Below, in pieces: positions 2,302 to 39,904 of a stretch of DNA of 64,000 nt (the first letter of the stretch is position 1; the number at the start of each line of letters is the position of its first letter). Source of the DNA: a bacterium (GTDB lineage Bacteria; Sysuimicrobiota; Sysuimicrobiia; Sysuimicrobiales; Kaftiobacteriaceae); contig JBIOWP010000107.1 in NCBI GenBank assembly GCA_044868695.1, forward strand, positions 9,348 through 73,347, read 5' to 3'. A model generated the notes under the pieces. The model had not been told where the DNA came from. It saw nothing but the letters and a program-made list of their open reading frames with translations, and made no database searches. The translations under genes were made by a program, and so were the position numbers.

Positions 2302-3192
2302 TCAGGGTTTGGGCGCCGCCACATGGTTGCGCAGCACGCCGATCCCCTCCACCTCGGCCTCCACGATGTCCCCGACATGCAGCCACCTGGGCGGGTCGAA
2401 CCCCATCCCCACGCCCTCCGGCGTGCCCGTGGCCATGATGTCGCCGGGCTCGATGGTCATCCCGGCTGAGAGGGTTTCGATCAGCCGCGCCACGCTGAAG
2501 ATCATGTTGGCGGTGGTGGAGTTCTGGCGCACCTCACCGTTGACGCGCATCCCCAGGCGCAGGCGCTGGGGATCGGGGATGGCCGATCGGGAGACGATCC
2601 ACGGCCCCAGGGGAGCGAAGGTGTCCAGCGACTTGCCTTTGAACCACTGCTGGTGCCGGCGCTGGAGGTCGCGGGCGGTGACGTCGTTCATGATCGTGTA
2701 CCCGAAGACGTAGTCCAACGCCTTGGCGGCGGGAATATCCCGGCCCCGCCGCCCGAACACCACCGCCAGCTCCACTTCGTAGTCCAGCGACTGGGTGGCC
2801 CGGTGGTAGGTCACGGGCGCGTTCGGTCCGATCACCGTGGTGGGCGGCTTGGTGAAGAAGACCGGCACGTCGGGCGGTGCCACGCCGCCCTCCCGGGCAT
2901 GCTCCGCATAGTTGCGGCCCATGCACATGATGTTCTTGCGGGGCCGCTGGATCGGGGCCAGCAGTCTGGCCCGGGCGAGCGGGATCGACGCGCGCTTGGC
3001 TTTCACCCAGGCCTCCGCCTCGGCCGCCAGCGCGCGCAGCGACGCCGCCGGCACCTCCGCGATCAGGCCGATCATGTCGCCCGGCACCCTAACTTTCTTT
3101 CGCCTGGCGACCGACTCCAGATCTACAACCCTGTCCTCCACGACAAACGCCAGGCGTGGCTCCCGTCCCGCCTGATAGGTGGCAACGCGCAC
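2302..3192 (-). CDS. Fumarylacetoacetate hydrolase family protein
   Basis: CMGRNYAEH, FFTKPPT, DYEVEL, NDVTARD, GKSLDTF, TGTPEGVG; GGAGGAGG RBS before GTG 3192. Confidence 0.92.
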   Translation of the reverse strand: MRVATYQAGREPRLAFVVEDRVVDLESVARRKKVRVPGDMIGLIAEVPAASLRALAAEAEAWVKAKRASIPLARARLLAPIQRPRKNIMCMGRNYAEHAREGGVAPPDVPVFFTKPPTTVIGPNAPVTYHRATQSLDYEVELAVVFGRRGRDIPAAKALDYVFGYTIMNDVTARDLQRRHQQWFKGKSLDTFAPLGPWIVSRSAIPDPQRLRLGMRVNGEVRQNSTTANMIFSVARLIETLSAGMTIEPGDIMATGTPEGVGMGFDPPRWLHVGDIVEAEVEGIGVLRNHVAAPKP

Positions 3193-13132: not shown

Positions 13133-15617
13133 TCCGCCTCCGTCCGTCATGCTGACGATCGACGGCACGGCGGTCACCGTCCCCAAGGGAACGACCGTCT
13201 ACCAGGCCGCGAAGCGGGCCGGGGTCGAGATCCCCATCTTCTGCTACCACGACCGCATGCCGCCGCTGGGCGCGTGTCGCATGTGCCTGGTGAAGGTGGA
13301 GAAGATGGGGAAGCTGCAGACCTCCTGCACGCTGGAGGCAGCCGAGGGCATGGTCGTATCTACCACCACCCCCGAGGTCAAGGCCGGGCAGGAGGCCATT
13401 CTCGAGTTCCTGCTCATCAACCACCCGCTGGACTGTCCCATCTGCGACAAAGGCGGGGAGTGCCCGCTGCAGGATCAGACGTACAAGTATGGGCCGGGCC
13501 GCAGCCGCTTTGTCGAGATGAAGCGCGACTTTGCCAAGCCGGTGTCGCTGGGCCGGGTGCTGGTGCTGGACCGCGAGCGCTGCATCCTCTGCTGGCGGTG
13601 TGTGCGCTTCGGGGAGATCATCGCCGGCGACAATGCACTGAAGGGGTTCGAGCGCGGGTTCAGCAGCGAAATCAACACGCCGTTCACGCTGCCGGTGGAA
13701 TCGAAGTTCATCGGGAACACCATCGCCATCTGTCCGGTGGGGGCGCTGACGGCGAAGACCTACCGGTTCGTCGCCCGGCCGTGGGACAATCAGTCTGTCC
13801 CCAGCGTCTGCACGCTGTGCGGGGTGGGCTGCGCCGTGGAGTTCGACGTCCGCGGCGGGGCGATCGCCCGGACCCGCGCCCGCGAGCAGCCGGCGATCAA
13901 TGACATCTGGCTGTGCGACCTGGGTTTCTTCGGCCATGGGTACGTGGCCCATCCTGACCGGCTGCGCACGCCGCTGGTGCGCCGCGACGGGCGGCTGGTC
14001 GAGGCGACGTGGGACGAGGCGCTCGACCTGGTGGCGCGGCGCCTGCGGGCCGCCCCGCCGCCACGCGTGGCCATGCTGGGTGGCGCGCGGCTGACTAATG
14101 AGGACGCATACGTGGCCGGCCGTTTCTTCCGCGGCATCGTGGGGACCAACCACCTGGACCACCGTGCCGATGCGTGGCCGGGGAGCGCGAGTCTGCTGGT
14201 CCCCTGGGGCATGACGGCGTCCATCGCCGATGTGGATGGAGCCGACGTCATCCTGCTGGCCGGCTGCGACATCACGGAAGAGTACCCCGTCCTCTGGCTT
14301 CGAATGAAGCGGGCCGCCGACCGCGGGGCGAAGATCGTGGTCGTCACGCCAAAGGCGCTGGAGATCGGCCGCGCCGTGGCGCACCACCTCGTGCACCGCT
14401 ATGGGGAAGGCGCCGCGGTCATCCGGGCTCTCGCCCAACAGCGAACGGCTCAGGACGGCGCCGGCGGTGTGTCAGGGGAGGCCATCGCCGCCTCCGGGGC
14501 CGTGCTTGAGCATGCGGCGCGCCCGGTCGTCATGATCGGCCGCCTGGCTCTGGATGCCCCCGACGGCGCTGAGACCTACGCCGCGGTGCGCGACATCGCC
14601 GCGACATTGGGGTCGTCTGTCAATGTCCTGCGCGGCAAGAGCAACGCCTTCGGGGCATCGCTCGCGGGACTGCTGCCGTCGACGGGTCCCGGCGGGCGCC
14701 CGATCGCGGAGATGGCGCAGGACCTCCACGCGCTGTGGGGGAGGGCGGTTCCCGGCGACGCCGGGATGAGTGCGCCTGAGATCATCGAGGCCGCGGGAGG
14801 GGGCAGGCTTGATGTGCTGTACGTGGTGGCCTCCGATCCGGCCACGGACGTGCCCGACCGCGCGCGCTGGACTGAGGCCCGCGCGCGCCTCCCGTTCCTC
14901 GTGGTGCAGGACGCCTTTCTCTCGCAGACTGCCCAGGCGGCGGACGTGGTGCTGCCGGCGCTCGTCGCGCCGGAAAAAGACGGCACCGTCAGTAATCTCG
15001 AAGGACGCATCCAGCGGCTGCATGCCGCCGTGGCCGGCCCCGGGGAGGCGTGGGCCGACACCGCGATCTTCACTGCGCTGGCCGCCCGCCTGGGCCGCGC
15101 GGCGGTGGCCTACAGCGGGTGGGACGAAATTTTTGACGAGATGCGCAGCCTCATTCCTGGGCTCGCCATTGACGAACGCATCCAACTGCCGGGCCCCACC
15201 GGAGCCCGGAGCCCGGAGCCCGAAGCCCGTCCCGCCGGCGCTGCCGACGCCGACTACCCATTCATCCTCATCACGGGTGACGTGCTGTTCGACCGCGGGG
15301 CGATGACCTCACGCAGCAAAGCGATTGCCGACCTGGCCGGCGAGCCGTCGGCGCTGATCCATCCCGACGACGCGGTGCGCGCGCACGTCGCCGACGGCGA
15401 CCCGGTGGTCCTTCGGTCGCGGCGCGGAGCTGTGGCGGTCCGGGCCAGGCTGTCGTCTGCGCTCCTCCCGGGCCAGGTGTTCGTCCCCCGCGGGTACGAC
15501 GCCGCGCCGGCGAATGCGCTGGTTGACCTGGCAGAGCCGTTCACCCGGGTGCGCGTAAGCACGCTGGTGCCGGTCGCGGGGGGCTCCACGTCCCCCGGAG
15601 AAGGCGGCGCGCCGTGA
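13125..15617 (+). CDS. nuoG: NADH-quinone oxidoreductase subunit G
   Basis: FCYH...GACRMC, HPLDCPICDKGGECPLQ, CILCWRC, CTLCGVGC. Confidence 0.95.
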   Translation: MPNPPPSVMLTIDGTAVTVPKGTTVYQAAKRAGVEIPIFCYHDRMPPLGACRMCLVKVEKMGKLQTSCTLEAAEGMVVSTTTPEVKAGQEAILEFLLINHPLDCPICDKGGECPLQDQTYKYGPGRSRFVEMKRDFAKPVSLGRVLVLDRERCILCWRCVRFGEIIAGDNALKGFERGFSSEINTPFTLPVESKFIGNTIAICPVGALTAKTYRFVARPWDNQSVPSVCTLCGVGCAVEFDVRGGAIARTRAREQPAINDIWLCDLGFFGHGYVAHPDRLRTPLVRRDGRLVEATWDEALDLVARRLRAAPPPRVAMLGGARLTNEDAYVAGRFFRGIVGTNHLDHRADAWPGSASLLVPWGMTASIADVDGADVILLAGCDITEEYPVLWLRMKRAADRGAKIVVVTPKALEIGRAVAHHLVHRYGEGAAVIRALAQQRTAQDGAGGVSGEAIAASGAVLEHAARPVVMIGRLALDAPDGAETYAAVRDIAATLGSSVNVLRGKSNAFGASLAGLLPSTGPGGRPIAEMAQDLHALWGRAVPGDAGMSAPEIIEAAGGGRLDVLYVVASDPATDVPDRARWTEARARLPFLVVQDAFLSQTAQAADVVLPALVAPEKDGTVSNLEGRIQRLHAAVAGPGEAWADTAIFTALAARLGRAAVAYSGWDEIFDEMRSLIPGLAIDERIQLPGPTGARSPEPEARPAGAADADYPFILITGDVLFDRGAMTSRSKAIADLAGEPSALIHPDDAVRAHVADGDPVVLRSRRGAVAVRARLSSALLPGQVFVPRGYDAAPANALVDLAEPFTRVRVSTLVPVAGGSTSPGEGGAP

Positions 15618-32251: not shown

Positions 32252-33460
32252 ATGGAGTTCGACCTGGCAGATCACCAGATCGCCGCGCAGCGTCTCGTGC
32301 GCGAGTTTGCGCACGGCGAGGTTGCCCCGCGGATCCGCGAGCTCGACCGCGCGCAGCAGTTCGACCGCTCGATCCTTCGCACGATGGGCGACCTGGGCAT
32401 CCTCGGCCTGTGCGTCCCTGAGCGGTACGGCGGGGCAGGGATGGACTACGTGAGCCTCGGGCTGGCGTGCGAAGAGCTGGAATACGTCGATACCTCCCTG
32501 CGCGTGATCATGTCGGTGCACCTGGGGCTCAACAGCCTCAGCCTGCTATCGTGGGGGACGGAGGAGCAGCGGCGGCGGTTCCTCGTCCCGCAGGCGCGCG
32601 GGGAGAAGATTGCCGCCTATGGGCTGACTGAGCCCGCGGCCGGCAGCGATGCCGTGGGGATTCAGGCGACGGCCGTGCGCGACGGCCGCCAGTACGTGCT
32701 CAACGGCGAGAAGACCTGGATGTCCCTGGCCGACATCGCCGATCACTTCCTGGTCTTCGCCTGGACCGACCCCGTCAAGCAGAAGCAGCGGGACCACGCC
32801 GGGCTCTCGGCGTTCGTCGTCACCCGCGACCTGAAAGGCGTCACCACCTCCACGCTTCACGGCAAGTTGGGCATCCGCGCCGGCAACACCGGATCCATCG
32901 TGATGGACGGCGTCCGCGTGAGCGAAGACCACCGCCTCGGTCAGGAGGGAGAAGGGTTCCGCATCGCCATGTTCGCGCTGGACCAGGGCCGGTACACGGT
33001 GGCGTCGGGCGCCGCGGGATTGATCCGCGCCTGCCTGGACAGCAGCGTCCGCTACGCGCGGGACCGGCGTACGTTCGGGAAGCCGATCGGAGAGCACCAG
33101 CTGGTCAAGGAGATGATCGCCCGGATGACCCGGGACTATGAGGTCAGCCGCCTGCTGTACCTGCGCGCCGGGTGGATGAAGAACCGGGGTCTGCGCAACA
33201 CGCGTGAGACGTCACTGGCCAAGTGGTACGCGACGGTAGCGTCGGAGCAGGCGGCCGGGGACGCGGTGGAAGTCCACGGTGCGTATGGCTATTCGGACGA
33301 ATACCCGGTCGAACGGTTCTACCGCAATGCGAAGGGCGCGGTCATTTATGAGGGCACTCGCGAAATCCACACCCTGCTGCAGGCCGACTACGCGCTGGGA
33401 CTCCGGGAGGACCGGTCCACCCGCGTGACGCTGCCCGCATGGCCGTTTGAATCCAAATGA
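32252..33460 (+). CDS. Acyl-CoA dehydrogenase
   Basis: [30 protein letters not shown]. Confidence 0.94.
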   Translation: MEFDLADHQIAAQRLVREFAHGEVAPRIRELDRAQQFDRSILRTMGDLGILGLCVPERYGGAGMDYVSLGLACEELEYVDTSLRVIMSVHLGLNSLSLLSWGTEEQRRRFLVPQARGEKIAAYGLTEPAAGSDAVGIQATAVRDGRQYVLNGEKTWMSLADIADHFLVFAWTDPVKQKQRDHAGLSAFVVTRDLKGVTTSTLHGKLGIRAGNTGSIVMDGVRVSEDHRLGQEGEGFRIAMFALDQGRYTVASGAAGLIRACLDSSVRYARDRRTFGKPIGEHQLVKEMIARMTRDYEVSRLLYLRAGWMKNRGLRNTRETSLAKWYATVASEQAAGDAVEVHGAYGYSDEYPVERFYRNAKGAVIYEGTREIHTLLQADYALGLREDRSTRVTLPAWPFESK

Positions 33461-34500
33461 CGGCGCCCTTCGAATGCGAAGTCCGGTTTCTCATCGACGA
33501 CATTCACGCGTTTCGCCAGCGCATCGCCGCACTCGGCGGCCGCGCGCGTTTTGAGTACGCGTTCACCGATCACTACTTCCGCGCCGGCGGCGGCGCGTCC
33601 GATCCCCGAGCGCGGGCCCTGCGCATCCGGGAACACCACCGGCCGGCCCAGCCGTGCGAGATCCTGCTCACCTGGATCGACCTCGTGCAGGTCAGCGGGA
33701 TGTCGTTCAAGCGCTCGAGATTTCCGGAGGGGAAGGTCCGCCTGTACACCGGTACGCTAGAGGAATGCCGGGCCGTGATGGGCGGGCTGGGCTACGAATC
33801 CTGGCTGGTGGTGCACAAGACCGCGGGTGCGCTCTATGAGATCCCAGGTCTCGGCGAGCTGGTGGCCGAGCAGGTGGACGGCGTGGGCTGGATGTGCGAG
33901 GTCGAAGTCGCGGGGGAGGACCCGGCGGCTGCCGCCCGGGCGATCCGGCGGAAGCTGGAGGCACTGGCGGTGCCCCCGGAAACGGTCATGTCCGAACCGC
34001 TGGCCGCGGTCGTGGCCGCGCGCGCCCGGCCGGCGGCGCAGCGGGTGTACTTCTGCGGGGCAATCCGCGGCGGCCGGTCGCTGCAGCCCCTCTACGCCTC
34101 GCTTGTCGGTGCCCTCCAGCGGTGGGGCTACCTGGTATTGACCACGCACGTGGCCGCGCCCGATGTGCTCGAGCAGGAGTGGCGCCCGGATGTGCGCGCG
34201 TCGGATATCTATGAACGCGACATGCAGTGGCTGTCGGAGTGCGACTTCGTCGTCGCGGAAGTCTCCGTCCCGTCGCTGGGGGTCGGCGTCGAGATCGCCA
34301 CCGCGCAGCAGTTGGGGAAGCCGGTCTTCTGTCTGTGCCGGACCGATGTGGCCCTGTCGGCGCTGATCGAGGGCAACACTGCGCTGCGGGTGATCCGCTA
34401 TGGAGATGAAGCAGAGTTGATGGATCTTCTCGAGAGGGAACTCCGGGACCGGGGACCGGGGACCGGGGACCAGAACTTGGCACGGAGATCGGCGCGCTGA
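33457..34500 (+). CDS. CYTH (triphosphate tunnel) domain fused to DNPH1/Rcl-like deoxynucleoside 5'-monophosphate N-glycosidase
   Basis: N-half ECEVR, DHYF, LRIR, EVE; C-half YFCGAIRGGR, THV, ERD, VAEVSVPSLGVGVE. Confidence 0.8.
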   Translation: MTAPFECEVRFLIDDIHAFRQRIAALGGRARFEYAFTDHYFRAGGGASDPRARALRIREHHRPAQPCEILLTWIDLVQVSGMSFKRSRFPEGKVRLYTGTLEECRAVMGGLGYESWLVVHKTAGALYEIPGLGELVAEQVDGVGWMCEVEVAGEDPAAAARAIRRKLEALAVPPETVMSEPLAAVVAARARPAAQRVYFCGAIRGGRSLQPLYASLVGALQRWGYLVLTTHVAAPDVLEQEWRPDVRASDIYERDMQWLSECDFVVAEVSVPSLGVGVEIATAQQLGKPVFCLCRTDVALSALIEGNTALRVIRYGDEAELMDLLERELRDRGPGTGDQNLARRSAR

Positions 34501-34560: not shown

Positions 34561-36273
34561 TTGTGCGTGCTGCCGTGGGAGCGTCTGCGCGACAAGCTCC
34601 TCGCCCTGGAGGGCAAACCATTTCAGGCGTACCAGGGACTCGAGGGCGCCTACCGCTTCGACCGTTTCACACTGCACCTGGAACGCATCACCGTTGAGCC
34701 CCCGGGTGTCCCGTCGCCGCTGCGCGTGCGCGTCGATCAGGCTGAAGCGCGGTTCCCGCCCTCGATGTGGGCGACGCCGGCGGGGAAGATCGCCTTGGAA
34801 GATTTCGCGGCCCGGCGGTGGCTGGATGCCATCCGCAAAGTTGCCCGCGCCCGCGGCGGCCGGCCGGGGTTCACCATCGATGTCGGCGGCCAGCAGATTC
34901 TGGAGCGCACGGCGTGCCGGATCGGCGAGGAGTACGTGGAGATCCGCGGCGCGCTGTTCCTTCCCTCTGAGGGCCGCAAGGTCGCGGCGAAAGCCGCGCA
35001 GACGGTCTTCTTCGAAGACCTCCCCCAGCTGGTCGATGCCGCGCTGATCTTCCCGAACCTCAACCCCGCGGCTGCGCAGCGCCAGCAGGAAGTGGCCGAA
35101 GATGCCGACGCCCTGCGCGTCGCCCTGACCTCCCGGTCTCTGGTGACCTTCCTCGCCGATGGGGCCGTGCTGCCGCGCGAGGGCGGTTCTGACCGGCCGG
35201 TGCTGTCCCGGTTGGTGCCGCTGCAGGCGCCGCCCGAGCTGAAGGTGACGGTGGACCTCCCTCACCGCGGGGCCGTGGCCGGCATGGGGATTCCCCGCGG
35301 GGTCACGGTCATCATCGGGAACACGTTTTCCGGGCGCAGCACCCTGCTGCGCGCGATCGCGTCCTCCGTCTACATGCACGTCCCCGGCGATGGGCGCGAA
35401 TTCTGCGCGACGGTCCCGGATGCGGTCCTGGTACGGGTCGAGGAAGGCCGGCGTGTGGAAGCGGTAAATCTCGCCCCGTTCCTCCACGAACTGCCCGGCG
35501 GGGAAGATCCCGCCCGCTGCAGGCAGGAGCATGCCGGCGACGTCGTGTCGCAGGCCGCCGGCATCATTGAGGCGCTGGAGGCGGGGTGCTCGCTCCTGCT
35601 GATTGACGAAGACACGTCGGCCCCAGGGCTGCTCGCCCGCGATCCGCTATGGCGGCAGCTTGCTCCGGAGGCGCGCCAGCCTGTGACCTCCCTCGCCGAG
35701 GCGGTGCGGCCGTTGTACGAGGAGCACGGCGTGTCGACCATCCTGGTGTCCAGCCGCGGCGCGGAGTATGTGCCCGTCGCCGACACGGTCATCGCCCTGG
35801 AGTCCTTCCGGCCCCGCGTCGCCACCGCTGAGGCCCGCCACGCGGTGGCACCGCACGCGGGCGTGCGCGCGGATGGGAAAGGCCGGTTCGGCGGAGTGCA
35901 CCACCGCGTCCCGCTGCCGGAGAGCCTAGCGTCGTTGAGGGGCCGCAAGATGCGCAGTGAGCCGCACGGCGGTCACACCCCGCGCGGCATGATCCTTGGA
36001 CGTGACGGCGTGGACCTGTCGGCCGCTGAACAGCTGATTGATCCCGCGCAGGCTCGGGCGATTGCCGCGGCGCTGGTCTTTGCCGCCGACCGCGGGCTCG
36101 CGGACGGGATGCGCACCCTCCGGGAGATCCTCGGGTCAATCGAGTTGGACATCGCCCAGCACGGCCTCGAGGTCCTGGTGCCCGACGCCGTGCCCGGCGA
36201 CCTGGCCCTGCCTCGCCGGCAGGAACTCGCGGCGGCGTTCAACCGGCTGCGCACCTTGCACGTGAAAACCTAA
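34561..36273 (+). CDS. Predicted ABC-class ATPase (COG3044-like), degenerate Walker A
   Basis: [52 protein letters not shown]. Confidence 0.82.
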
Positions 36274-36358: not shown

Positions 36359-37717
36359 ATGGAGAGCGTGAAGTACCTGCTTGACGAATCGCAGATTCCC
36401 AAATCCTGGTACAACATCTGCTCGGATCTGCCCGTGCCGCTTCCGCCGGTGCTGCATCCGGGCACCAAGCAGCCGGTGGGCCCGGACGATCTCGCGCCGC
36501 TGTTCCCGATGGACCTGATCCTGCAGGAGGTCAGCACTGAGCGCGAGATCCCCATCCCCGAGCCGGTGCGCGAGGTGTACAAGTTGTGGCGGCCCACGCC
36601 GCTGCATCGCGCACGGCGGCTCGAACGGGCGCTCGACACCCCGGCGCACATCTACTACAAGTACGAAGGCACCAGCCCGGCCGGTAGTCATAAGCCGAAC
36701 ACCGCGGTCGCGCAGGCGTTCTACAACAAACAGGCGGGCGTGCGGCGGCTGAGCACGGAGACCGGAGCCGGACAGTGGGGCAGCGCGCTGGCGCTGGCCT
36801 GCCGGATGTTCGGGCTCGAGTGCACCGTGTACATGGTCAAGGTGAGCTACGACCAGAAGCCGTACCGCAAGACCATGATGCAGACCTGGGGCGCTGAAGT
36901 CATCCCCAGCCCGAGTTCCCGTACCAACGCCGGCCGCGCCATCGCGGCCAAAGACCCGCGCTCGCCGGGCAGCCTGGGCATCGCCATCAGCGAGGCCGTC
37001 GAGGACGCCGCGACGCACGATGACACGAAGTACTCTCTGGGCAGTGTCCTCAACCACGTCCTCCTACACCAGACCGTCATCGGGGTGGAAGCCCGCAAGC
37101 AGATGGAGATGGCCGGCGAGTATCCCGATGTTGTCATCGGGTGCATCGGGGGCGGGAGCAACATGTCGGGGCTCACGTTCCCGTTCCTGGCCGACAAGTT
37201 CAAGGGCAAGAAAGTGCGGATCGTGGCGGTGGAGCCCGAGGCGTGCCCGTCGCTGACCCGCGGCCGGTACCTCTATGACTTTGGGGACACTGCGGCAACC
37301 ACGCCACTCATCAAGATGTACACGCTCGGCCACAGTTTTGTGCCGCCGGCGATCCACGCGGGTGGGCTGCGCTACCACGGCGATGCGCCCCTCGCCTGCC
37401 TGCTGTATCATCACAAGTACATCGAGGCCGCCGCCTACTCGCAGCGGTCCGTCTTTGAAGCCGCGGTGCAGTTCGCGCAGACCGAGGGGATCATTCCGGC
37501 GCCGGAATCCGCGCACGCGATCCGCAAGGCCGTCGATGAGGCGCTCCAGTGCAAGCGCGACGGCACGGCCCGGGTGATCCTGTTCAATCTCAGCGGACAC
37601 GGGCACTTTGACCTGAAGGCCTACGAGGATTTCCTGGCCGGCAGGCTGGAGGACTTCGTCTACCCGCAGCAGCAGGTGGAGCAGGCGATGAAGGAACTGG
37701 CGGCGATTCAGCCCTAG
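36359..37717 (+). CDS. trpB2: Tryptophan synthase beta chain, TrpB2 type (stand-alone)
   Basis: [54 protein letters not shown]. Confidence 0.95.
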
Positions 37718-37728
37718 CCGAATTCTTA

Positions 37729-37757
37729 TTGACGGAGGTCAAGAATTACGGTAGCCT
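37729..37757 (+). promoter_or_regulatory. Sigma70-type promoter TTGACG-N17-TAGCCT with overlapping TTGAC-N4-GTCAA palindrome, upstream of FTR1
   Basis: -35 at 37729-37734, -10 at 37752-37757; palindrome 37729-37742. Confidence 0.6.
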
Positions 37758-37798
37758 AGGGCGCGGGTTTCACTCCGCAACACCTTGGGGAGGGGCGC

Positions 37799-38629
37799 AT
37801 GGCGGCATCGTTGTTGATCACCCTGCGAGAGGGGCTCGAAGCCGCTCTCATCGTGGGGATCATTCTCGCGTATCTGGCAAAGACCGGGAACCGGGACAAG
37901 TCAAGGATGGTCTGGCTCGGCACCGGCCTCGCCGTCGTCATGAGCATCGTCGCCGGGGCCGGCATCTTCTTCAGTGCCGGTGGGCTCGCGGGCCGGGCGG
38001 AGGCGATGTTCGAGGGTACGGCGATGCTGACCGCCGCCGGGGTCCTGACCTACATGATCTTCTGGATGCGCCGGCAGGCGATCAACATCCGCGCCCACCT
38101 GCAGTCGCAGGTCAACATGGCGCTGGAGACTGGATCGCTCGGGGCGCTGGCGTTCCTGGCGTTCGTGGCGGTGGGGCGCGAAGGCATCGAGACGGCGCTG
38201 TTCATGTTCGCGGCCGTCCGGACCGCAACCCCGATGGCGGCCACAGTCGGTGGGCTGTTGGGTTTGTTGGCGGCGTTTGTGTTGGGATATCTCCTCTATC
38301 GAGGCACATACCGCCTCAACCTGCGCGCGTTCTTCAACGTCACCAGCATCCTGCTGCTGCTGTTCGCGGCGGGTCTGCTGGCCCACGGCACCCATGAGTT
38401 CCACGAGGCGGCTGTCATTCCGCCGATCATCGAGCACGTGTGGGACACGAACTCGGTACTCCACGAAGCCTCACCGCTCGGGAGCCTGCTGAAGGCCGTC
38501 TTCGGCTACAACGGCAACCCCTCGCTGGTGGAGGTTCTGGTCTACGCGGCCTACCTGGTCCTCGTCGGCTGGGCATACTTCCGGCCGCCCACCCCAAAGG
38601 AGCTGGCTCCGGAACGCGCGAAAGCCTGA
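37799..38629 (+). CDS. FTR1/EfeU-family iron permease
   Basis: Two REGxE motifs (REGLE, REGIE); multiple TM helices. Confidence 0.94.
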   Translation: MAASLLITLREGLEAALIVGIILAYLAKTGNRDKSRMVWLGTGLAVVMSIVAGAGIFFSAGGLAGRAEAMFEGTAMLTAAGVLTYMIFWMRRQAINIRAHLQSQVNMALETGSLGALAFLAFVAVGREGIETALFMFAAVRTATPMAATVGGLLGLLAAFVLGYLLYRGTYRLNLRAFFNVTSILLLLFAAGLLAHGTHEFHEAAVIPPIIEHVWDTNSVLHEASPLGSLLKAVFGYNGNPSLVEVLVYAAYLVLVGWAYFRPPTPKELAPERAKA

Positions 38630-38635
38630 CACGGC

Positions 38636-38926
38636 ATGCGTACAGCTCACGGACTGGACTTGAGGTCGCTCGCGCTCAGCCTCGTCGCCTCCTGGTGATG
38701 ACTGGTCGCCCCCGTGGTGAGCCTCCTCGGGTTAGGAGGCGCGACGCTGCAGGTTTTCTTTGAGTCGGCCAGGCCGTATCTGCTGGTCCTGACCGGATTC
38801 TCGCTGGCCTATTCGTTCTACCTCGTGTATCGCCGGCCGTTTCGCCCCCGACCCGCCGTCGCGCGACTGTGGATCACGACTGTAGTATCCGTCATCCTCG
38901 TGTCCATTCCGTTCTTCCGGGACTGA
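38636..38926 (+). CDS. MerT-like membrane protein with tandem in-frame TGA-TGA at the Cys-Cys position (candidate Sec-Sec selenoprotein)
   Basis: MRTAHGLDLRSLALSLVASW-(TGA)(TGA)-LVAPVVSLLGLGGATLQVFFESARPYLLVLTGFSLAYSFYLVYRR...LWITTVVSVILVSIPFFRD; TGAs at 38696-38701; SECIS-like hairpin follows. Confidence 0.8.
38705..38745 (+). promoter_or_regulatory. Candidate bacterial SECIS element
   Basis: Lower stem GTCGC/GCGAC, upper stem GCCTCCT/AGGAGGC, apical loop CGGGTT starting 26 nt after the second TGA. Confidence 0.65.
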
Positions 38927-39003
38927 CCCGCGGTCCACCCCTTCACAGTTTTCGCGGTTTCCACCAATGGCGTAAGACGAGCCTGACATAGGAGAGTACT
39001 GCC

Positions 39004-39060
39004 AAAGAAGGAGGGGACTGTCCCCTCCTTGCAATAGCCCATATTGGTCATTGATGGGTG
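39004..39060. repeat. 57-bp dispersed repeat copy 2
   Basis: Matches 25352-25408. Confidence 0.85.
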
Positions 39061-39077
39061 ATTTGTTTGGGTCATCT

Positions 39078-39904
39078 GTGACGACTGAAGAGATCATGTC
39101 GCTCGCGCTGGAGATGTCCGGGTTTCTCCGGATTCCGGAGGATTCCGCCATTTTCGTCCCAGGCAAGGGCATCCAGAAGGTGCTCTTCGGTGTGGACGTC
39201 GGGGCGGCGGAGCTGCAGATGGCGAAAGCGCTGGGTGTCGACCTGGTGATCGCCCACCACCCGCCCGCCACGGGCACCGACACCTGGAAGATCTTCCTGC
39301 GGCACGTCGAGTTTATGACCGCTGCCGGGGTGCCCGAGGACGCGGCGCTGGCGGCCGTGGCGGAGAAAATCGAAGGGCTGAAGCTTCGCGGGCAGGTCGC
39401 CAACTACGACCACGTGCCCTCGGCCGCGAAATTGATTGGCATCCCGTTCATGAACATCCACGCGCCGCTCGATGAACTGGGCCGGCGGCGCCTGCGCGAG
39501 CAGGTGGACGGCGTGCTGGCCCGGGGCCGGGCCACGGCCGGAGATCTGGTGGACGCGCTCGCCGCGCTTCCCGAGATGCGCGCCGCGCCGACCACCGTCC
39601 AGGCGGTCCTCGGCGACGCGGCCGACCCCGTGCGCCGCGTCGTCGTGGGCCACGGCGCCTATACGAACGGCGGCTATCCGGTCGCCCGGGCGTGCTTCGC
39701 GCACGGGGTAGACGCCGTCGTGTACATACACATCGACTTCGCGGAACTCCAGCACCTCCGGGCCGAGCGCCGCGGTAACCTCATCGTTGCGGCCATCTGG
39801 CCGGCGATTCGCTGGGTTTTACCCCCTTTCTTCGCGAGCTCCGGAAGCGCGGACTGGACGTGATGACCTTCAGCGGCGTGATTGAACCAGTCCCCAGTCC
39901 CTAG
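39078..39904 (+). pseudogene. NIF3-like metal-binding protein with apparent 1-nt frameshift near 39790 (pseudogene or sequence error)
   Basis: GVDVG, IAHHP, NIHAPLDE; conserved-looking GHLAGDSLG tail continues only in the shifted frame from 39791 to TAG 39902-39904. Confidence 0.7.

Follow-up and report, generated by a model that had tools for sequence, protein, structure and literature searches.

Selenocysteine (Sec, U) insertion in bacteria is usually described as one UGA codon plus one hairpin at a fixed distance from it. In the minimal SECIS of E. coli fdhF, as the main text of PMC8659212 gives it, the hairpin starts 11 nt after the UGA and carries a bulged U17 and the loop bases G23-U24. 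MerT-family selenoproteins with a Cys-Sec (CU) motif, for example WP_250634603.1, are described in the main text of 10.1101/2022.07.06.499078, and a "putative mercuric transport protein" selenoprotein is found in the main-text tables of PMC9312934 (as ABB16073.1) and of PMC2398784 (as a family), so that the mention of reported single-Sec MerT homologues in the first-pass annotation of the present DNA agrees with the literature. Additionally, UxxU sequences belonging to the Prx-like 2 family of the GOS metagenome appear in the main text of PMC2398784. A natural bacterial UGA-UGA read as Sec-Sec was not found to be reported in the main texts of open-access papers and bioRxiv preprints; as far as these texts go, the Sec-Sec (UU) form of MerT-like selenoproteins is new, and only the Cys-Sec form is in print.

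The gene considered here, referred to below as the UU gene, can be set against each of these systems, the published ones being taken as their main texts describe them. Like the CU MerT selenoproteins, it encodes a small MerT-like membrane protein with UGA in the vicinal Cys pair, and gene callers truncate it likewise; the CU proteins, however, have one Sec beside a Cys, whereas both positions are UGA in every member of the UU family found. With the UxxU Prx-like 2 sequences it shares two close Sec codons in one prokaryotic gene, but there the codons are two residues apart in a soluble thioredoxin-fold protein, and here they are adjacent in a predicted membrane helix. Its hairpin, like that of fdhF, lies in the coding region just downstream of UGA and has a G in the apical loop, but it is located 8-11 nt further from the UGA, lacks a bulge, has the loop CGGGYU and would have two codons to serve. 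MerT itself (PF02411; NF010314, NF033560) has the same three helices (predicted in the case of the UU protein), with the vicinal pair in helix 1 followed by LGxGG and RPY motifs, and nearly the same length (97 positions in the MerT RC607 model versus 96 aa). At the same time, MerT differs in its cytoplasmic Cys pair and in its merR/merP/merA neighbours, neither of which the UU gene has, and the UU protein scores below the cut-offs of the MerT models. The curated selenoprotein model NF045683, which includes a MerT-like domain, is a weak match to the UU protein, but its 235 positions also include a CopZ domain.

The UU gene is located in the window, that is, the whole 64,000-nt stretch of soil-bacterial DNA that was analysed, and has the following layout.

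37799..38629, forward strand: upstream neighbour, EfeU/FTR1 iron permease (context only)
38636..38926, forward strand: full read-through ORF, 96 codons plus TGA stop; MerT-like, with candidate U21-U22
38636..38695, forward strand: N-terminal 20 codons, predicted first half of TM1, missing from database gene models
38696..38701, forward strand: TGA-TGA, candidate Sec-Sec codons 21-22, invariant in 14/14 distinct sequences
38924..38926, forward strand: terminal stop TGA (TAG at the same place in the orthologue in G005)

The first TGA (38696-38698) and the second (38699-38701) are separated from the ATG at 38636 by 19 sense codons and from the terminal TGA at 38924-38926 by 74 sense codons, and the ATG itself lies 6 nt past the TGA stop (38627-38629) of the FTR1 gene. 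With U at both TGAs, the read-through product begins MRTAHGLDLRSLALSLVASWUULVAPVVSLLGLGGATLQ and has 96 residues and zero Cys. The ORF layout thus confirmed the 96-codon frame that the first-pass annotation had opened at an ATG 6 nt after the FTR1 stop, and the translation confirmed its description of a protein with neither Cys nor the second, cytoplasmic Cys pair of MerT. The table-11 ORF list contained only 38714-38926 (70 aa, GTG start) for this gene, in agreement with the remark that the ORF track had shown only the part after the TGAs. The identification of the upstream gene as FTR1 also held, 37799-38629 matching Pfam PF03239 (E 8.3e-58) and the NCBIfam EfeU model (274.4 bits against a cut-off of 255). 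A tRNA scan of the 64-kb window found no tRNA, and a promoter/terminator scan of 37600-39200 yielded nothing informative. The spacer that separates the UU gene from the Nif3-like gene contains, at 39009-39033, a perfect 9-bp hairpin, GGAGGGGAC-TGT-CCCCTCC, which lacks a T-run and is not among the calls of the terminator scan.

We consider it quite likely, on the basis of the sequence comparisons given below, that 38636-38926 is an intact MerT-like gene, in which both UGAs would be read as Sec with the help of a conserved hairpin.

TGATGA was found at codons 21-22 in 14/14 distinct DNA sequences, represented by the window and 20 loci from two genome families and several metagenomes, and no TGC or TGT variant occurred among them. 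When 61 related genomes were searched with the stops read through, three genomes of another genus were seen to carry orthologues (73-76% identity), each with two TGAs inside the match; overall, orthologue identity was 65-77%, with the same two TGAs. Among 94 genomes of the phylum, which belong to one order, the UU gene was detected in six, all with two TGAs (G000; G005, G011 and G015; G077 and G078, representing three genera and two families), and was not found with this query in the remaining 88. Note that G077 is an unpublished genome on which the count of six and the locus L030/L050 partly rest; leaving it out reduces the counts to five genomes and 13 distinct sequences. A further 20 UU loci came from scans of genome and metagenome collections, and the same scans gave two Cys-Cys homologues (L048 and L049). 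Loci L031 and L032 were discarded as short unrelated matches covering only 20-30 residues, and the weak genome matches in G027 (E 0.0016) and G053 (E 0.005) were judged unrelated on inspection. The match in G066 covered only residues 65-95 of the query (E 2.4e-5).

At the protein level, 24 hits among 28 candidates were obtained in a collection of 5.8 billion proteins, of which 23 were close clusters (65-99% identity) of 69-74-aa forms that start past the TGAs, and the 24th was a Pfam-MerT protein. Every database model found for the UU family is truncated (23/23 close clusters, by 22-27 residues). No CC, CU or UC version at an identity of at least 65% was present among the relatives found, either as protein clusters or as DNA loci.

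The frame is conserved on both sides of the TGA pair. Of the 18 codons that precede the TGAs, 17 showed synonymous differences, with few replacements, which is the protein conservation on the 5' side that the first-pass annotation had made decisive for its proposal; it had likewise looked to TGC or TGT at the site, and neither occurred in the 14 distinct sequences or in the contigs of four other soil runs. For these 18 upstream codons, comparison with family-f1-type relatives gave pS values of 0.51-0.66 and pN values of 0.05-0.15 (pN/pS ~0.1-0.2), much like those of the downstream part (pS 0.48-0.55, pN 0.14-0.16), and the N-terminus was more diverged from the family-f5 form (pN 0.31-0.38). 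The relatives align from the ATG onward, and there is no conservation 5' of it. In 7 of the 14 sequences, the first ATG, GTG or TTG after the TGAs comes no earlier than codon 50-75, and still the UU protein is best conserved over codons 23-50, so the conserved region needs read-through. None of the 14 sequences carries a frameshift or another stop. The codon-usage score of the first 20 codons did not single out their frame, being 0.055 per codon in their own frame versus 0.071 in another. Contigs of four other soil metagenome runs from two studies had the site 38696-38701 unchanged, and this agreement between independent runs rules out that the TGAs are sequencing errors or arose by recent nonsense mutation. 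One intact frame, under purifying selection on both sides, thus extends across the two stops.

Homology searches placed the TGA pair on the Cys pair of MerT-like proteins, as the first-pass annotation had proposed. In the BLASTP alignment with a MerT-annotated hit, U21-U22 fell on the CC of LASACCVGP (38% identity, E 2e-9). When 1.84 billion representatives were searched exhaustively with HMMER, 119 hits were obtained, namely one truncated close family and 118 distant MerT-like proteins; 36 of these 118, taken among the shorter, higher-ranked ones, were aligned together with P0029, and the two TGA columns corresponded to Cys-Cys in all of these 37 homologues. The expectation that homologues would have Cys at these columns was thus borne out by every Cys-type relative aligned (37/37). 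Between four UU proteins of full length and these 37 Cys homologues, hhalign gave a probability of 99.5% (E 2.9e-23) and a single continuous alignment of residues 9-95, running straight through the TGA site. All NCBIfam scores of the UU protein were far below the curated cut-offs: 38.6 bits against 130 for NF033560, merT_RC607 (E 1.1e-9); 16.7 bits against 150 for NF010314; and 20.5 bits against 375 for NF045683, the MerT/CopZ selenoprotein (E 2.6e-4, residues 6-70). No Pfam family matched the UU protein at E up to 0.1, and the Pfam MerT model PF02411 had no match genome-wide. The helix 2-3 loop of the UU protein, RRPFRPRPAVAR, contains no Cys, whereas in MerT-type homologues this loop is longer and includes a Cys pair; this cytoplasmic pair is also absent from the Cys-type homologues P0038, P0040 and P0065. 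Most likely, judging from these alignments, the UU protein is a distant MerT homologue with its candidate Sec codons at the position of the metal-binding Cys pair.

The RNA element proposed to recode the two UGAs is as follows.

38721..38740, forward strand: SECIS-like hairpin, 7-bp stem GCCUCCU/AGGAGGC, 6-nt loop CGGGUU
38717..38745, forward strand: the hairpin with two outer pairs, in which G38717-C38745 and U38718-A38744 close a 2x3 internal loop

In the DNA, GCCTCCT occupies 38721-38727, the loop CGGGTT 38728-38733 and AGGAGGC 38734-38740. The stem starts 22 nt past the first UGA and 19 nt past the second, the loop starts 29 and 26 nt past them, respectively, and G is the second loop base. 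The bSECISearch model takes 16-37 nt from the UGA to the apical loop and a G among the first two loop bases, and the spacing and loop G of this hairpin fall within that window. The hairpin appears both in the RNA minimum-free-energy fold and in the RNAalifold consensus. In folding energy, 38690-38760 did no better than chance (z -0.37; 64 of 200 shuffles folded at least as well), so the case for the hairpin rests on conservation. All seven stem pairs were invariant in 12/12 aligned sequences and only loop position 5 varied (U/C); being invariant, the 7-bp stem offers no covariation. The second outer pair was C-G in nine sequences and U-A in three, with both sides changed, probably in a single evolutionary event.

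Synonymous variation, counted in 13 full-length sequences, affected 1 of 9 codons over the hairpin versus 67 of 82 elsewhere (p 4e-5); in the longer stretch that begins at the UGAs and takes in the whole hairpin, 3 of 13 sense codons were synonymously variable versus 65 of 78 elsewhere (Fisher p 3e-5). In a 9-codon sliding window, the minimum, 1 of 9, lay exactly on the hairpin. Omitting the unpublished genome does not change this outcome and gives p values of 2e-4. Hairpin 38721-38740 is thus under RNA-level constraint. Of the structure drawn in the first-pass annotation, the inner GCCTCCT-CGGGTT-AGGAGGC hairpin with its spacing and loop G was present, but the outer GTCGC/GCGAC stem was not conserved: it is specific to the window, its 3' side is GCAGC or GCTGC in 9 of 12 aligned relatives, and only the two outer pairs are kept in relatives. 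Against Rfam, with E values up to 10 allowed, 38560-38960 matched nothing but a CRISPR repeat, by chance (E 4.9).

Two genes of the same genome were used for calibration. The strongest hairpin after the UGA had an 8-bp stem and the loop GUG, with its start 21 nt after the UGA, in a peroxiredoxin (Prx) gene, and a 9-bp stem and the loop GUC, with its start 33 nt after the UGA, in selD; the loop distances in the UU gene, 26 and 29 nt, fall between these values. The loop of the UU hairpin has no invariant G-U step.

The genome (2.59 Mb, 95% complete, 66.9% GC) encodes the Sec machinery, on which the first-pass annotation had also made its proposal depend, and further genes with in-frame TGA, located as follows.

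C84:2656-6154, reverse strand: selA, selB and tRNA-Sec cluster, head to tail (loci L001, L008 and L012)
C146:9981-10742: selD (locus L009), in-frame TGA, active-site motif VACAG-U-ASK; runs off the contig end
C84:52869-53252, reverse strand: AhpC/TSA peroxiredoxin (locus L053), TGA at the catalytic Cys (DDTAG-U-TIE)
C16:11223-11612, forward strand: AhpC/TSA peroxiredoxin (locus L057), TGA at the catalytic Cys (SADW-U-PYCKG)

The side-by-side genes on contig C84 scored 575.6 bits (selA), 357.6 bits (selB) and 78.3 bits (tRNA-Sec), and selA, selB, selC and selD, the last of them on C146, were all above the curated cut-offs. The in-frame TGA at its active site makes selD itself a selenoprotein gene. 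Both Prx selenoprotein genes, which came from targeted family searches, have a hairpin after the TGA; a codon-usage scan on both sides of every genomic TGA gave 695 candidates and was too noisy at 67% GC. TGA is not reassigned in this genome: of 1325 long open frames, 696 end in it, more than in any other stop, and so do the FTR1 and UU genes. In the phylum, selA was found in 78 of 94 genomes, including five of the six with the UU gene, and was not found in the UU-bearing genome G005 (93% complete). As a separate observation, the window contains, at about 13806-15530 (C107:23153-24877), an Fdh-alpha-like molybdopterin oxidoreductase gene that scored below the cut-off and has no in-frame TGA, which makes it not a Sec-type FdhA by this search.

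The same locus can be read in other ways. It might be a dead or decaying MerT-like pseudogene that acquired nonsense mutations, or simply an assembly error. Two adjacent stops would indeed be a very effective knockout, and few genomes of the phylum have the gene (88/94 gave no match with this query); nevertheless, relatives at a synonymous divergence of about 0.4-0.7 per site have the same two stops, purifying selection acts on both sides of them, and 14 sequences without frameshifts or other stops, together with independent contigs that agree, make such an origin extremely improbable. It is also conceivable that the locus gives two products, a 20-residue leader ending at the tandem stop and a separate protein of 70-74 residues, whose translation would begin at GTG 38714 or, by re-initiation, at the CTG that immediately follows the stops. 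Precisely this is predicted by the gene callers (23 truncated clusters; ORF 38714-38926), the window has GTG at codons 27-28, and the codon after TGATGA is CTG in 14/14 sequences. CTG starts, however, are very rare in bacteria, and 7 of the 14 sequences lack ATG, GTG or TTG before codon 50-75 despite the conserved codons 23-50. Moreover, the 20 upstream codons are homologous to the residues before CC in MerT-like proteins, with the alignment running through, and the split would cut one transmembrane helix in two, so we regard two separate products as highly unlikely.

Read-through that bypasses Sec, with a near-cognate tRNA (Trp or Cys) or a Cys-charged tRNA-Sec inserting W, C, CU or UC, would retain a single protein, and Cys at these columns would be functional, given that the Cys homologues all have CC; UGA followed by C is, besides, a leaky context. 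Near-cognate decoding of two stops in a row should nevertheless be extremely inefficient, and such decoding leaves two observations unexplained, the preference for TGA-TGA over TGC/TGT in 14/14 sequences and the synonymously constrained hairpin, in a genome whose Sec machinery is present and used by other genes. We judge it very unlikely.

In the preferred reading, that of an intact gene with Sec at both UGAs, we infer Sec insertion at both codons, one SECIS serving both, and a role in transport. Both UGAs would be decoded as selenocysteine by the host SelA, SelB, tRNA-Sec and SelD, with hairpin 38721-38740 as the putative recoding signal. Its stem base lies 22 and 19 nt past the UGAs, so the hairpin would be outside the mRNA entry channel with either UGA in the A site; it might then recruit the SelB-GTP-Sec-tRNA complex twice in succession, the second complex arriving after the first has left. 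Two successive recodings, each in competition with RF2, are expected to give a low yield. A natural Sec-Sec dipeptide, formed by two SelB-dependent insertions under the direction of one hairpin set back 19-22 nt and bearing a vicinal diselenol or diselenide, is in our opinion the probable outcome.

The vicinal Sec-Sec would be located in the middle of the first transmembrane helix, at the invariant Cys-Cys position of MerT-like proteins. An AlphaFold2 model with C in place of U had three helices, with modest confidence (mean pLDDT 69.9, pTM 0.35).

38657..38758, forward strand: predicted helix 1, residues 8-41, containing the UU pair (AlphaFold2)
38771..38917, forward strand: predicted helices 2 and 3, residues 46-66 and 72-94, with a short Arg/Pro-rich loop without Cys

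Foldseek found no match of this model in the PDB, and a profile run against PDB sequences returned nothing beyond weak matches to transmembrane helices, at E 0.02 or worse. Mammalian thioredoxin reductase likewise has two vicinal chalcogens that can close into an eight-membered ring, in its C-terminal Gly-Cys-Sec-Gly; this eukaryotic redox enzyme is soluble and has a single Sec, with its SECIS in the 3'-UTR. Most UU relatives read G-U-U at the site.

As for function, the diselenolate or diselenide could serve as the putative site at which a soft, thiophilic ion of the Hg(II) type, or a selenium or sulfur species, is bound and passed across the membrane. Soft-metal or chalcogen handling at such a site is the likeliest activity, which we propose with low confidence, and the putative substrate is the weakest step of this account; rather than importing mercury, the protein may work as a selenium-based membrane relay of the redox or chalcogen/metal type. 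In family f1, the gene order is TrpB-like, FTR1, UU gene, Nif3-like, LplA/B and Cys/Met-PLP enzyme, and in family f5 the UU gene is preceded by PGK and TIM, with no mer operon near it among the neighbours in either family. FTR1 linkage was rejected as a functional clue, the adjacency being confined to family f1 (gaps of 6 to 138 nt) and not seen in f5. A MerA-type gene is located elsewhere in the genome (C16:7666-9081, reverse strand; NCBIfam 535 bits, above the cut-off), but co-occurrence is not supported, MerA-type genes being present in 2 of 6 UU genomes versus 23 of 94 overall. The missing mer context and the unsupported co-occurrence with MerA are the reasons for naming the protein MerT-like rather than MerT.

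A conserved UGA-UGA served by one hairpin would be a natural test case for the spacing tolerance of SelB, and it would bear on SECIS re-use within one translocation step and on the competition of a second recoding event with RF2. If the proposed reading is true, bacterial SECIS spacing would be tolerant enough for back-to-back recoding, and a vicinal Sec-Sec in a membrane helix would either bind soft metals very strongly or form a diselenide of low potential, chemistry that bears on microbial handling of mercury-like metals and of selenium. Selenoprotein finders that accept one in-frame UGA per gene can be expected to miss the UU family.

Some further observations concern the surroundings of the genes discussed above. 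The MerA-type gene on C16 lies about 2 kb from the gene of the U-P-Y-C peroxiredoxin selenoprotein. At the family f5 loci L029 and L030, a short hydrophobic ORF at about 2665-3000, between pgk/tpiA and the UU gene, could be secG by its position. Upstream in the window, one ORF at 33457-34500 combines CYTH-like and nucleoside 2-deoxyribosyltransferase-like domains, and it is followed at 34561-36273 by a gene for an MRB1590-type ABC-class ATPase (PF09818, PF20446, PF21117).
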